Shown here one piece after another: positions 47,458-51,191 of a DNA stretch of 64,000 nucleotides. The translations under genes and the position numbers were made by a program. The stretch covers positions 2,170 to 66,169 of the IMG/VR virus record IMGVR_UViG_3300043410_001333; one strand, given 5' to 3'. The notes below the pieces were generated by a model. It searched no databases. It saw only the letters and a program-made list of their open reading frames with translations, and had not been told where the DNA came from. Position 1 is the stretch's first letter. Every line of letters starts with the position of its first letter. The stretch is from a virus (Duplodnaviria; Caudoviricetes).

Positions 47458-47574
47458 TCACAATCAAAATAAAACGGTTGGCAACCGCCGCTGGGCTACG
47501 GTAGAAACGGTTCGCGCGTTTCCGCTCGGCCCCGGCAGACGGGCGCGTTCCCTCCATATACAGTTTTTACGGAA

Positions 47575-48003
47575 ATGGCAACCACTATGGAACACGACCT
47601 GAAAAGCCTGCCGGACGGCTTTGCGGACCTGATGAACGGCACTAAGACTTTTGAATTGCGTCTGGATGATCGTCCGTATGCCGTGGGTGACACGCTGCGG
47701 TTGCGGGAGTGGGTAGACGACGCCTACAGCGGCCGGACCGTCGTCAAGCGCATCAGCCACACGCTGCGGGGTTGCGAACATTTGCCCAAGGGCTTCGTCC
47801 TGATGGCCCTGGTGGACGCTAACAGCAACATTACCGATTTGTTAGATGACATGAGCGCCGTCATCCGAGTAGCCGAAGGCCGTGTCACCGATGACACGTC
47901 CTACACGATGCGCGAACGGTGGTTGACACTCGCTGACAAGGGGCGCGCTATGGTTAATAATCTGAAATCGCAAAACATTTTTATGGTGGCGGTGCAGAAG
48001 TAA
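47575..48003 (+). CDS. ASCH/PUA-like (DUF3850) protein
   Basis: HDLK..F..GTKTFELRLDDRPYAVGD.L.LREW. Confidence 0.8.
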   Translation: MATTMEHDLKSLPDGFADLMNGTKTFELRLDDRPYAVGDTLRLREWVDDAYSGRTVVKRISHTLRGCEHLPKGFVLMALVDANSNITDLLDDMSAVIRVAEGRVTDDTSYTMRERWLTLADKGRAMVNNLKSQNIFMVAVQK

Positions 48004-48344
48004 TGCGCGTGTTGGTGTGCGGCGGCAGAGACTACAGTGACTGGCAACACGTATGGGCTGTGTTAGACGAATATCATTCGTTGTATAACATAGACACTGT
48101 TATCCACGGCGCCGCGCGTGGCGCGGATACTTTAGCCAGCGACTGGGCGCATAATCGCAATGTGCGAGTAGAACCTTATCGCGCACAGTGGAACACGCAC
48201 GACAACGCTGCTGGTCCTATTCGCAACAAGCAAATGTTGGACGAAGGCAAACCCGATATTGTTATCGCGTTTCCAGGCGGAAGGGGCACAGAAAACATGA
48301 TCCAGCAAGCAACCGCTGCTGGTGTTCAGGTGGGGAGAGTATAA
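48003..48344 (+). CDS. YspA/SLOG-family protein (DUF2493)
   Basis: MRVLVCGGRDY..IHGAARGAD..AGPIRNKQML..AFPGGRGT. Confidence 0.85.
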   Translation: MRVLVCGGRDYSDWQHVWAVLDEYHSLYNIDTVIHGAARGADTLASDWAHNRNVRVEPYRAQWNTHDNAAGPIRNKQMLDEGKPDIVIAFPGGRGTENMIQQATAAGVQVGRV

Positions 48345-48348
48345 TTTG

Positions 48349-50325
48349 GTGCCGAGTGTCACGCTCCTTACCGGAGATGCTTTAGACCAACTCCGCAATC
48401 TTCCTGATGAAAGTGTGCATTGTTGTGTGACTTCCCCTCCTTATTTCGGGTTGCGGTCATATTTACCCGGCGTAGTTCGGTTAAAATTGAATATACCCGA
48501 CAACGTTTCAGCGGCGGTTATTGAAAAATTAACTGCGTATGGTATAATGCCTGTTTATAGTAATACAAATGAAATAAATGGTAGTTCGTGCGTAAATCAA
48601 ACGGTCAGTTTGCCGCAGGGTATCACTGGCGGAAGCACCAAGCATTCCGCGATAGAGAATGGCTTATCTACAACTACACAGACTTGGGGCGAAGTTCGGG
48701 AGACATCGCAGCAGAATTTGGTACAACCGGAGAAGCTATTTTATTTTGGTTGCGGAAGTACGACATTCCTCGCAGATCAATTTCCGAGGCGCGAAGTACT
48801 AAAAAATGGGGACTTAGCGGACAGAACAACCCCATGTGGAACAAACGCGGAGAACTTAACCACCGATGGCTTGGTGGAGTTACCGCCGAAAGGCAAGCGT
48901 TTTACGCAAGTTACGAGTGGAAACAAGCGTGTTCGACGGTCTGGAAACGCGACGACGCCAGATGTCGTAGATGCGGGCTGCACAAAAAAGATCAGCCAGA
49001 CTTGTCTTACCACATCCACCACATTATTAGTTTCGCCAACGTTGAAACACGAGCCGATCCGTCAAACCTCGTGTTGTTGTGTGAAAAATGCCACCGCTTT
49101 GTCCACTCTCGCGCTAACACAAACCGCGAATTTATTCTTAAAACGTGATATTCCTTGTAACTTGCTGCGCTATTTTGAACCGGCGGAAATAGGTTTAGAA
49201 CCCACACCCGACGAATATATCGCGCGTCTAGTTAGTGTGTTTCGTGAAGTGCGACGTGTGTTACGCAGCGACGGGTCGTTTTGGTTGAACATAGGCGATT
49301 CGTACGCGCGTAATCCATCAAAAGGTGGTAGCGGCCCTAGTGGTAAGAACAGCGCGTTCTACGGAGATTCCTATACGGATGCTCAAACAGCCGCCGATAG
49401 ATCATTCGGAGAAGCCAAAGAAAAAGACCTGCTAATGATACCAGCCGCTGTCGCCATCGCTTTACGCGCGGACGGTTGGTATCTTCGGTCCAACATCGCG
49501 TGGACCAAGGGTTCGGTTATGCCGGAAAGTGTGAAAGACCGACCTAGCAGCGCGCACGAAAGCATATTCATGCTGACCAAGACGACGCGATATTTCTATG
49601 ACGGGTTTGCTGTTGCTGAGTCCCCCGCTGAATCTTCCCTAAAACGGATAACGCAACCCAACTTCAAAAATCAAAAAGGTGGCGAGAAGGATTACGGAAA
49701 CGGCACTAACAGCAACCGAAGCGCGCGAAAGACCCTGGAAAACTTTGCGGCTAATCCAACCAGACAACTCCGCAACCACTGGCACATCAACCCTGAACCG
49801 CTGCGAGACGCACACTTCGCCGCTTTCCCAACCCGTCTTGCTAGTCGCTGTGTCCAAGCAGCTACGTCAGAATACGGCTGCTGCGGGGTGTGCGGGGCGC
49901 CGTATAAGCGTATCATCGCCCTAGGTGAACCGGATGCAGAACATATGGCCGCGTGCGGGGCTGACAGCAGCGGTGGTTATGATGGTGTATCGCAGAAAGA
50001 CTACGCCTCCGCGCAAGCCCAGGACGCTTCCGCTACCAAAGCCCGTATTCTGGCGGGTATGCGCAAGAAGGAAACGGTCGGTTGGGAAAAGACTTGCGCT
50101 TGCGATTGCACTGACGTAGTGCCCGCTTTGGTGCTGGACCCGTTTTCAGGAGCCGGAACGACAGCGCTGTGTGCTGTCAGATTAGGACGCGATGCTATCG
50201 GTATCGACCTTAACAGCGAATACCACGAAATAGGTGTGCGGCGTATCGCCAATCCAGACGCAAAGTGTCTGGACACAAACGGCGAACGACTTCCATTCAG
50301 AGAAGGAAAGGTGTTTGTGTCTTGA
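48349..50325 (+). CDS. N6A/N4C DNA methyltransferase (beta class) with a large in-frame insertion
   Basis: VTSPPY catalytic motif; EIGLEPTP..WLNIGDSY resumes after the insert; HFAAFP; LDPFSGAGTT. Confidence 0.85.
   Translation: MPSVTLLTGDALDQLRNLPDESVHCCVTSPPYFGLRSYLPGVVRLKLNIPDNVSAAVIEKLTAYGIMPVYSNTNEINGSSCVNQTVSLPQGITGGSTKHSAIENGLSTTTQTWGEVRETSQQNLVQPEKLFYFGCGSTTFLADQFPRREVLKNGDLADRTTPCGTNAENLTTDGLVELPPKGKRFTQVTSGNKRVRRSGNATTPDVVDAGCTKKISQTCLTTSTTLLVSPTLKHEPIRQTSCCCVKNATALSTLALTQTANLFLKRDIPCNLLRYFEPAEIGLEPTPDEYIARLVSVFREVRRVLRSDGSFWLNIGDSYARNPSKGGSGPSGKNSAFYGDSYTDAQTAADRSFGEAKEKDLLMIPAAVAIALRADGWYLRSNIAWTKGSVMPESVKDRPSSAHESIFMLTKTTRYFYDGFAVAESPAESSLKRITQPNFKNQKGGEKDYGNGTNSNRSARKTLENFAANPTRQLRNHWHINPEPLRDAHFAAFPTRLASRCVQAATSEYGCCGVCGAPYKRIIALGEPDAEHMAACGADSSGGYDGVSQKDYASAQAQDASATKARILAGMRKKETVGWEKTCACDCTDVVPALVLDPFSGAGTTALCAVRLGRDAIGIDLNSEYHEIGVRRIANPDAKCLDTNGERLPFREGKVFVS
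48521..48548 (+). promoter_or_regulatory. internal sigma70 promoter for the nested HNH gene
   Basis: TTGAAA-N16-TATAAT with perfect TGn extended -10, 40 nt before GTG 48588. Confidence 0.7.
48588..49148 (+). CDS. HNH endonuclease nested in the +2 (-1) frame of the methyltransferase
   Basis: HTH-like N-terminus, G..NPMW..N.RW.GG, RDDARCRRC..HIHHI..NLVLLCEKCHRFVH. Confidence 0.88.
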   Translation: MRKSNGQFAAGYHWRKHQAFRDREWLIYNYTDLGRSSGDIAAEFGTTGEAILFWLRKYDIPRRSISEARSTKKWGLSGQNNPMWNKRGELNHRWLGGVTAERQAFYASYEWKQACSTVWKRDDARCRRCGLHKKDQPDLSYHIHHIISFANVETRADPSNLVLLCEKCHRFVHSRANTNREFILKT

Positions 50326-51191
50326 CAATACGTTCTTCCGTTATTCTGCACAGCAAAAACCATGTAGGCGTTCCGCTGATAACCATGAACGCCTATTACC
50401 CTCGCATAATCCATGCTGAGCATCTTCGTCACAGATGTTTCTCGTTTTCCGTATCTTCCAGCCGCGCCATATCGGTTCATAAACTGATATCATCTGTTGA
50501 AGACGATCCCTATGTGCCGTTCGTGTGGCTGAAGACCGCTGGCCGCGGTATGGTGGCGGGTGAGGAACTGAAAGGCGCAGGACGCGTCATCGCGTACGAT
50601 TCATATATGCGCGCCATGGAAGCCGCGCTGACCGAAGCCCGTATCCTGGCCGCGCAGGAAGTCAGCAAGCAACAAGTCAACCGCATTCTGGAACCTTACG
50701 CCCATGTCAACGTCATCGTCAGCGGCACGTCATGGGCCAATTTCTTCGCGCTACGGCGGCACCCAGCCGCTGACCCGGTGTTTCAGGAACTGGCGAACAG
50801 TATGTGGAGCGCGATCCACAGCAGCGAATCGCAGCTAGTCGCTGATGGGAATCTACACCTTCCGTGTCTTAGTGAGGATGATACGGATCTTGTGTGGGTT
50901 TTGAATAACATGCGTCGCACTGAACATAATAACGCCTTGATGATGATTTGCGCCGCTCGGTGTGCTGGCGGCAGTTACACACTGGACGGCGTACGAACAC
51001 GCGATCCAGGTAAGGACTACGCACTCGGCAAAACGCTTACGGAAGGATCGCCTATGCACGCAAGCCCGCTGGAACACGTAGCTATTGCTGATAGTTGCAT
51101 GATGTATACACATCAGCATGGTAATTATTTCGGATTTAGACAATTCCGCAAGACGTTTGCTAACGAATGTGTGGAGGACGACTATCTGTGA
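50322..51191 (+). CDS. thyX: flavin-dependent thymidylate synthase
   Basis: RHRCFSFSVSSSRAI matches RHRxxSxxxxSxR; KQQVNRILEP; NFFALR; HASPLEH. Confidence 0.82.
   Translation: MTIRSSVILHSKNHVGVPLITMNAYYPRIIHAEHLRHRCFSFSVSSSRAISVHKLISSVEDDPYVPFVWLKTAGRGMVAGEELKGAGRVIAYDSYMRAMEAALTEARILAAQEVSKQQVNRILEPYAHVNVIVSGTSWANFFALRRHPAADPVFQELANSMWSAIHSSESQLVADGNLHLPCLSEDDTDLVWVLNNMRRTEHNNALMMICAARCAGGSYTLDGVRTRDPGKDYALGKTLTEGSPMHASPLEHVAIADSCMMYTHQHGNYFGFRQFRKTFANECVEDDYL

Follow-up and report, generated by a model that had tools for sequence, protein, structure and literature searches.

Phage group I introns commonly encode HNH homing endonucleases (e.g. I-PfoP3I), sometimes with a promoter of their own. 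The ShiLan domain of actinophage methylases is a stop-free insert of 202 amino acids (aa) that hides an out-of-frame HNH gene, shows no intron or intein signature and has a disjunct distribution, and its authors have proposed a tolerated loop and translation of the HNH protein from a leaderless start (excerpts of PMC9957025 and PMC11855218). The nrdA gene of Aeromonas phage Aeh1 is split by the free-standing endonuclease gene mobE, and tails are needed for assembly (excerpt of PMC3045599). For methylases of mycobacteriophages the puzzle of the hidden HNH gene has been public since 2023-2025, and in those excerpts it still stands without mechanism or experiment. Here we describe an arrangement of this kind in a Caudoviricetes phage, found in a stretch of 64,000 nucleotides (64 kb; "the window" in the following) of IMG/VR virus record IMGVR_UViG_3300043410_001333, which comprises 66,169 bases and is rated complete. 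An HNH gene lies out of frame inside the open reading frame (ORF) of a DNA methyltransferase, or methylase, and from comparison with related loci we consider it likely that it belongs to an HNH homing cassette that is translated through, without splicing or bypass, the locus being a derived re-fusion of a gene that is split in most relatives. The novelty implied by a preliminary description of the locus was set too high, since the same layout has been published for actinophage methylases (excerpts of PMC11855218 and PMC9957025). The window nonetheless adds an independent case, with another HNH family, insertion site and habitat, and what is new here is a set of dozens of related loci that grade from a split gene via a bridge ORF to a full fusion.

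The HNH cassette in the methylase frame

The features of the locus are as follows, P0002 being a cassette-free database methylase and L004 the closest relative of the window.

48346..50325 (+): fused DNA methyltransferase ORF, from the ORF list, Pfam, alignment and an AlphaFold2 model
48433..48462 (+): SPPYFGLRSY codons, the last host residues ahead of the cassette, by alignment
48463..49188 (+): whole cassette (tail, HNH gene and head), 726 nucleotides (nt), by alignment with insert-free P0002
48463..48573 (+): tail, 37 codons (LPGVVRLK...GIMPVYSNTNE), with homology to the tail at the C-terminal end of N fragments in split relatives
48521..48548 (+): sigma-70-like site TTGAAA-16-TATAAT with TG extension, consensus match 11/12, within the tail codons
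48574..48576 (+): codon ATA at the position of the TGA stop of the L004 N fragment, aligned by eye
48574..49125 (+): bridge, the methylase-frame reading over the HNH gene, 184 codons without stop, predicted disordered and a separate ORF in relatives
48588..49148 (+): HNH endonuclease gene (PF01844), 186 aa, GTG start, TGA stop
49110..49128 (+): lost restart signals, by comparison with relatives
49126..49188 (+): head, 21 codons (ANLFLKRDIPCNLLRYFEPAE), with homology to the head at the N-terminal end of C fragments in split relatives
49189..50322 (+): host methylase C part, IGLEPTP to the end, by alignment with P0002

The long ORF matches PF01555 (N6_N4_Mtase, E 7e-35), and its motifs stand in the order of the beta class, with SPPY (motif IV) near the N-terminal and DPFSGAGT (motif I) near the C-terminal end. 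At its maximum the ORF extends over 48322-50325, giving 667 aa counted from the first GTG (48322) to the stop at 50323-50325, and the start is likely TTG 48346 or GTG 48349, preceded by GGGGAGAG at 48332-48339, because it is here that the start of P0002 aligns. P0002 is 86% identical to the window methylase across the alignment, and the C part of the latter furthermore retains every one of the 23 invariant columns of a 54-sequence alignment. The preliminary description had put the extra sequence between the two methylase motifs at about 235 residues and had proposed an alignment with insert-free homologues; with nine of these (P0002, P0003 and seven others) used to set the borders, the estimate is borne out, 242 stop-free codons in the methylase frame separating SPPYFGLRSY from IGLEPTP where 5 residues are found in P0002. 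The loop that follows motif IV is naturally variable, as it consists of these 5 residues in P0002, contains a Cys-rich insert in P0008 and P0089 and is formed by tail and head in the window.

The nested ORF encodes a complete HNH protein (PF01844, E 9e-11; also PHROG 8446), as had been described, while the helix-turn-helix domain likewise attributed to it found no Pfam match at E<=0.1. Its GTG start lies immediately 3' of an in-frame TAG. All 67 columns that are invariant in a 20-sequence HNH alignment including the window are kept by the window protein, the CxxC pairs and the His and Asn residues among them (C126, C129, H144, H145, N160, C165, C168 and H169). At E<=0.001 the family has 416 members among database proteins, and identity is 60-75% for the best 120 of them.

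Parts of window 48200-49400, both junctions included, were recovered in contigs from two further studies (runs X3 and X4) with 0 letters differing, and an assembly slip is unlikely because the identical sequence occurs in contigs of three studies. Neither a cassette-free version nor a joined junction of the window phage was present among the contigs matched to 48200-49400, a near-identity DNA search with 47500-50500 against the phage collection gave no match, P0002 searched against viral contigs gave no locus, and no RNA run was among the five listed for the stretch. One 245-nt contig from the source sample (run X2 record 4) matches window 48414-48455 over 42 bases with 5 differences and translates beyond the match to ..DYGHSGQMG.., and is as such a related cassette-free methylase of another phage. 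Database protein P0001 (414 aa, 100% identical to the locus) is a shortened call whose length implies a start at the internal GTG 49081; spanning 49081-50325, it illustrates that automatic annotation misses the N part of the methylase as well as the fusion. It should accordingly be borne in mind that gene callers either reduce the methylase to this 414-aa protein or call the bridge frame in place of the HNH gene.

Split methylase genes in related loci

Five scans yielded 117 loci (80 metagenome, 10 genome, 26 viral and 1 from the window's own record), of which the scans using the 20-member HNH alignment contributed 80 metagenome, 10 genome and 24 viral loci, and a tblastn search with P0002 as query matched 100 of 118 sequences. 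Sixty-five rows, duplicates and the window included, carry an HNH gene with at least 50% identity to that of the window between an N part that ends in SPPYxGLRxY and a C part that begins at IGxE. The distance from SPPY to IGxE modulo 3 is 0, 1 and 2 in 22, 25 and 18 of these rows, respectively, and since the two methylase parts are out of phase in most rows, read-through is impossible in most relatives. The frame of the N part runs into a stop 29-140 nt past SPPY in all 64 non-window rows (113-140 nt in 63 of them), and only the window lacks it. In the same 64 rows a tail peptide, LPDxVxLKxDLPxxVxxxVxxELxxLGIxP.., is conserved after SPPYxGLRSY, and the stop that ends this N fragment mostly lies 13-22 nt ahead of the HNH match, although the two overlap in a few loci and are up to ~100 nt apart in others.

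On the far side of the HNH gene, a conserved head, x[V/M]NIYRKSxIPxHLxxYFEPAE, precedes IGLE in the frame of the C part, and a restart is found at its V/M position in 53 of 57 distinct loci, being GTG in 28, ATG in 17 and an ATG one codon upstream in 8. It is preceded at 7-10 nt by a GGAGGA-like or AAGGA-like Shine-Dalgarno sequence (SD) located within the HNH codons for HSRxN. Every Val at the restart position is encoded by GTG (28/28), as suits a start codon rather than a spliced exon. Judged from these alignments, a split methylase gene is the normal state of the HNH cassette. The atypical splicing or ribosomal bypassing that had been considered earlier is thereby disfavoured, for the parts occur in all three relative frames and each fragment has its own stop or start, so that the relatives solve the insertion by gene splitting and not by RNA removal. 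In seven database proteins (P0241, P0244 and P0247-P0251) the methylase is unsplit, tail and head are contiguous and there is no HNH gene, and the break made by the HNH gene consequently falls in the middle of a small subdomain; this subdomain may be either native to the methylase subfamily or a scar from HNH loss. P0251 also has an intein elsewhere in the methylase. Five further proteins (P0087, P0095, P0096, P0089 and P0008) that were considered as additional fused forms were rejected, as their inserts are of other kinds (zinc-ribbon loop, LAGLIDADG-like, intein) and not the HNH cassette.

Of the four loci among the 57 that lack a standard restart, two have another layout and the other two are the window and L004. 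In the window CGCGCT replaces the GGAGGA of the relatives, CAA (49120-49122) replaces the stop and GCG (49126-49128) replaces the GTG or ATG, and the methylase halves are in phase within one uninterrupted frame, rather than forming the two ORFs with an independent start that characterize genes in pieces. L004, whose HNH gene is 74% identical to that of the window in protein and 69% in DNA, is likewise devoid of the SD, the pre-restart stop and the restart; it retains a TGA after the tail, followed by a methylase-frame ATG 5 nt ahead of the HNH ATG. The two are sisters on a quick tree (Shimodaira-Hasegawa-like approximate likelihood ratio test, SH-aLRT, 98) and have the HNH residues HSRANT in common where others have HSRGNV or similar, from which it follows that SD, stop and start were lost together, and because other members of the group around window and L004 have the full signal set the fused state looks derived.

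The reading we prefer can thus be put as follows. A mobile, homing-type HNH cassette would have lodged in a phage N6/N4 DNA methyltransferase, in the variable loop behind motif IV (SPPY), and would be removed neither from the RNA nor from the protein. In most relatives the methylase would be cut into two genes whose products reassemble, the order being N fragment with tail, stop, HNH gene with its own promoter, SD and GTG/ATG restart in the 3' end of the HNH gene, and head with C fragment. With stop, SD and restart gone, the halves in the window would share one frame that is open across the HNH gene, and a ribosome setting out from the methylase start would read the 242 cassette codons and produce one polypeptide of ~659 aa whose tail and head are joined by an unstructured loop of ~185 residues. 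Synthesis of the HNH protein would be separate, with the +2 frame being read and the internal promoter providing the transcript. The alignments and searches show the anatomy of the locus, the series of relatives, the surplus of open frames and the lack of intron and intein signatures, whereas we infer production and activity of the fused protein, firing of the promoter and continued homing by the HNH protein. The large tolerated loop first envisaged is in our view the best reading for this phage.

When the first 120 residues that follow IGLE are compared, the methylase of the window shares 90% identity with P0002 and 69% with P0003, but only 36-61% with 36 cassette-bearing methylases. HNH and methylase identities are correlated with r 0.17 only (666 pairs from 37 loci). 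Such a correlation, together with the lack of a cassette in the closest methylase, is the pattern of a homing element, and the cassette with its tail and head has evidently, to judge from these identities, moved between methylase lineages. The distribution of the insert is disjunct and its history differs from that of the methylase, and among the loci fetched the HNH family is seen only with this methylase family, either inside the gene or directly upstream.

The upstream arrangement is found in six distinct loci (L049/L102 ~3138, L066 ~874, L116 ~2760, L065 ~779, L051 ~795 and L056 ~1022), where the methylase frame is broken right behind the SPPY[YWF] codons by 1, 4, 4, 4, 7 or 8 additional bases. 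These mostly begin with an in-frame TGA or TAA (e.g. TAC TAC TGA TGG..), and GLRDYG.. resumes in the shifted frame; in L101 and L104, which have the same layout, the methylase is intact. Such breaks could mean that there is a programmed frameshift or a short bypass, that repair left a scar where the nuclease has its target, or that the genes are dead. The methylase C parts of relatives contain another insert, of 530-630 nt, with the methylase frame open in L016, L017, L027, L055 and L079. It hides a minus-strand ORF with a weak PF01844 match (E 3e-4 to 5e-3) at 1297-1836 in L016, 1165-1785 in L055, 1713-2342 in L027 and 833-1408 in L007, and a plus-strand ORF at 1580-2131 in L007 (HNH, E 2e-12) and at 3460-3975 in L079 (no Pfam match). 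L014 and L016 are identical in the upstream part and differ in this second insert.

The open frame across the HNH gene

In 56 of 57 distinct loci, the frame of the methylase C fragment corresponds to +1 relative to the HNH gene. The preliminary description had noted that this frame is free of stops in the window, which holds true, but its estimate of the chance of this, (61/64)^187, is not a suitable null as the frame overlaps a coding gene. We therefore used synonymous-codon shuffles of the HNH gene that keep protein and codon usage, and on this basis the chance of no stop in the window alone is P 0.009-0.036. Across the family, with exclusion of the last 30 nt, which hold the conserved pre-restart stop, 20 of 68 distinct HNH genes are stop-free in the methylase frame against 2.17 expected from the shuffles, and when clustered at 85% nucleotide identity 17 of 57 clusters are so against 2.0 expected. 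The 20 open-frame genes have 60-92% pairwise DNA identity (median 0.67), meaning that synonymous sites have turned over many times, and the remaining 48 genes have 2-14 stops, which about equals or exceeds expectation. Comparison with the shuffled genes thus shows the excess of open frames to be large and points to selection. A pooled codon test (0 of 107 risky codons) was discarded as circular, the group having been chosen for absence of stops, and was replaced by this count of observed against expected genes. Among 46 HNH genes with at least 3 stops in the +1 frame, Leu, Val and Ile codons before an A-initial codon end in TA or TG in 220 of 347 cases, as compared with 383 of 866 elsewhere, so that stops are enriched in closed +1 frames and the HNH family looks two-state.

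In the 18 open-frame genes other than those of the window and L004, the open stretch is an ORF of its own, the bridge ORF, which starts with an ATG 5 nt ahead of the HNH ATG and 8-11 nt past the N-fragment stop and ends 0-3 nt short of the restart codon. A search of 1.84 billion representative proteins with the bridge peptide gave 50 matches, 48 of them of 152-214 aa, and the 15 that were aligned match end to end, starting beside the HNH start and finishing at the restart site. The two long matches (582 and 871 aa) were rejected as fused relatives, since they consist of 6-8 short matching stretches of low-complexity appearance. Gly and Cys are the sole invariant residues of the bridge-protein alignment, an invariance that would be expected from invariant HNH codons in the overlapping frame; there is consequently no sign of a folded bridge protein, which fits a translated spacer. 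Tentatively, and with somewhat less confidence than we would need to favour the idea, we propose that in about one third of the HNH family selection keeps an overprinted bridge ORF open, that this ORF could relay ribosomes between the methylase halves by termination-reinitiation, with HNH expression being separate, and that L004, with the bridge joined to the C fragment, and then the window, with N fragment, bridge and C fragment all joined, may be successive steps of fusion. Were this relay real, a gene fragmented by a selfish element would have been healed without excision, by translating through the element, and the origin of stop-free inserts of the ShiLan type would be explained as well.

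As regards expression of the HNH gene itself, the TTGAAA-N16-TATAAT site with TG extension first described for the window is indeed present, matching the consensus at 11 of 12 positions and ending 39 nt ahead of the HNH GTG. The family as a whole has a sigma-70-like promoter with a -35 element TTGACx within the tail codons for P-[IL]-D and a -10 element just past the N-fragment stop, 3-10 nt before the ATG, and by consensus matching at least 9 of 12 positions are found in 44 and at least 10 of 12 in 33 of 67 distinct upstream regions. The position of this -10 element would give a leaderless or near-leaderless HNH mRNA.

The consequences for the protein were approached by structure prediction. 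An AlphaFold2 model of the fused protein, calculated with a 54-row alignment, has a block-mean predicted local distance difference test score (pLDDT) of 87-98 for residues 1-40 and mostly above 90 from residue 281 onwards, although it drops to 48-66 at 321-350 and to 54-57 at 441-460, and residues 72-254 have pLDDT below 50 and no secondary structure. As a prediction this is compatible with a tolerated loop. For the split state, docking of the N and C fragments of L099 gave a score of 0.86 as compared with 0.00 for the best of three controls, passing a mark that is reached by 58 of 80 solved complexes and by 2 of 110 mismatched pairs. The runs have at least 75% of contacts in common with a partner pLDDT of at least 73, and the predicted interface includes head residues 2-22 and tail residues 40-70, although the pass may only reflect likeness to solved intact relatives, the fragments being halves of one fold.

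With respect to genomic surroundings, the neighbours in the window are phage genes of DNA metabolism (helicase, RusA, thymidylate synthase and dNMP kinase), and in L099, a viral contig, a tRNA gene lies at 863-936 upstream of the split methylase (Rfam RF00005, 57.8 bits).

Alternative explanations and known systems

Several points weigh against a functional re-fusion. A 185-residue loop beside the catalytic motif might disable the enzyme even if the protein is made, and the loss of SD and restart is equally expected of a dying gene. The window HNH sits on a long branch (0.40 as opposed to 0.06 for L004 on the quick tree), which could signify decay of the element or the locus. The family promoter is degraded in the window (GTTTAT..ATAAAT, with ATAAAT at 48574-48579 as the remnant of the -10 element), and the 11/12 site 30 nt further upstream is a lone consensus match, the scan having given 2 sites in the region against 2.7 from shuffles. 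The open frame of L004 taken alone is not significant (P 0.23-0.28), the P values obtained for the family by treating sequences as independent (8e-22 and 6e-18) are too small since the 20 open-frame genes are related, and the shuffle null preserves amino acids and codon usage and not codon-pair bias. These observations can be gathered into the notion that the methylase is dead or dying, the cassette having split the gene, the restart signals having decayed and the open frame being left from a lineage in which it was open by chance, and the argument made for ShiLan that phage methylases are often dispensable (excerpt of PMC11855218) lends itself to the same notion. We nevertheless hold it to be unlikely, in that the 184 overlapping codons of the window are stop-free at the low probability given above, the frame of L004 across the HNH gene is also stop-free despite the modest DNA identity of the two HNH genes, and the C part keeps all of its 23 invariant columns, folds with high confidence in the model and is as close to P0002 as 90% over its first 120 aa. 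Moreover, no stop intervenes from the methylase start onwards, so that the long product would be made whenever the mRNA is.

Re-fusion with translation through the cassette should also be set against explanations in which the insert is removed or has a different purpose. The cassette is neither an intein nor a recognisable intron. Self-splicing of an intron, group I or other, that holds the HNH gene and takes the insert out of the RNA would be in keeping with the frequency of HNH genes in such phage introns and with the conserved catalytic site at which the insert is found, as is often the case for introns. It is however highly improbable: in agreement with the earlier remark that the flanks look too short for a group I core, a covariance search of 48200-49500 gave 0 Rfam matches at E<=10, even if Rfam models can miss introns holding large ORFs, and no intron family was found by Rfam in 20 related loci. 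Instead of the non-coding flanks of an intron (P1-P9 core), both flanks show peptide conservation and contain stop and start signals, the stop lying directly before the HNH gene and the SD and GTG/ATG at a fixed position in 53 of 57 loci with Val as GTG throughout, and the contiguity of tail and head in uninterrupted methylases leaves only ~15-25 nt and the ORF for a ribozyme. Protein splicing, by an atypical intein or by a split intein made of tail and head, would suit an in-frame, stop-free insert at a conserved site, inteins do occur elsewhere in the methylase family (L034, L050, P0091 and P0251, of LAGLIDADG type in L034 and L050), and there are known fractured genes in which split inteins flank a free-standing endonuclease (excerpt of PMC2677866). 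It is nonetheless scarcely credible, since Pfam revealed no intein family in the window ORF at E<=0.1, as had been expected, and no intein or Hint domain in 31 N fragments and 22 C fragments, since the tail begins with Leu-Pro and not with Cys or Ser, the head does not end in His-Asn and the endonuclease is in another frame, and since tail and head belong to the mature protein in unsplit homologues. Ribosomes that bypass or frameshift over the cassette have a precedent in T4 gene 60, which has a mobile bypass cassette next to an HNH gene (excerpt of bioRxiv 10.1101/2022.08.31.505936), and the small frame-breaking inserts behind SPPY in some related loci could be quoted in the same vein, but with a gap of 726 nt as against 50 nt in gene 60, no stop to force take-off in the window and ordinary stop and restart signals in the relatives, such a mechanism is hardly conceivable here. 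Lastly, the HNH and methylase genes may be thought of as a compact restriction-modification-like or exclusion pair, which would account for their association, as was suggested at the outset. The restriction of the HNH family to this methylase family in the loci fetched, the label 'McrA' that sources give to HNH relatives and the HNH genes noted upstream of related methylases (excerpt of PMC11855218) speak for this; we regard it as very unlikely, as the cassette is present or absent among close methylases with discordant gene histories, P0002 as the closest of them being without it, 'McrA' is a generic HNH annotation, and a target within the methylase gene explains the association as it does for any homing endonuclease.

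The series of loci implies that the fused form is derivable from split genes, and it makes the open overlapping frame amenable to statistical testing. Two questions become testable as a result, namely how a host gene survives when an endonuclease gene without any splicing machinery invades it, and whether there is selection on long stop-free alternative frames over endonuclease genes. We found no published account of a split-to-fused series or of a bridge ORF, although the survey of other phages and prokaryotes in PMC11855218, available as an excerpt, may already list relatives. To the published ShiLan-type puzzle, as it stands in the excerpts, the comparative series offers a testable mechanism.

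Compared with phage group I introns that encode HNH endonucleases, the window is similar in having an HNH gene with a promoter-like site of its own at the catalytic site of a conserved phage gene, and it differs in that no ribozyme is detected and the flanks are coding with stop and start signals. Its split relatives more closely resemble nrdA and mobE of Aeh1, inasmuch as an endonuclease splits the gene of an enzyme, C- and N-terminal tails are found at the break, and neither RNA nor protein splicing is involved (excerpt of PMC3045599). The window departs from that system in having its pieces re-fused and in the identity of both endonuclease and host enzyme, and tail and head, being contiguous in unsplit methylases, may furthermore be a native subdomain or a scar and not new sequence. 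The split relatives are likewise reminiscent of fractured genes (excerpt of PMC2677866), but they lack split inteins and their halves would associate without ligation.

The closest counterpart is the ShiLan element of phages ShiLan, Mantra and Totinger, which we represented by gp66 of Mycobacterium phage Totinger (L121), a protein carrying the same insert as ShiLan. This 772-aa methylase ORF also has a LAGLIDADG-type insert after DPPYNLSF.., and the combination of the two inserts has been described for the Totinger methylase family (excerpts of PMC9957025 and PMC11855218). On the evidence of these excerpts, both systems have a stop-free in-frame insert (~200 aa in ShiLan) in a phage PF01555 methylase with a complete HNH gene on the same strand in another frame, the GTG start of the HNH gene lies near the 5' end and its stop near the 3' end of the insert, a disordered read-through loop is predicted and an HNH transcript or start of its own suspected, and there is no intron or intein signature and a disjunct distribution among methylases. 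The insertion sites are different, as the Totinger insert follows ..HEPVVVARKP far downstream of DPPY and that of the window follows SPPYFGLRSY, and the HNH families differ as well, Totinger having a zinc-finger-flanked HHINHD..N type and the window another, in line with the absence of a Mycobacterium phage among the 2 phage records that match the window HNH at E<=1e-5. The sources are also distinct, the window family coming from freshwater metagenomes and ShiLan from actinophages. Compared in sequence and layout, the window is thus the same kind of object as ShiLan, not the same element.

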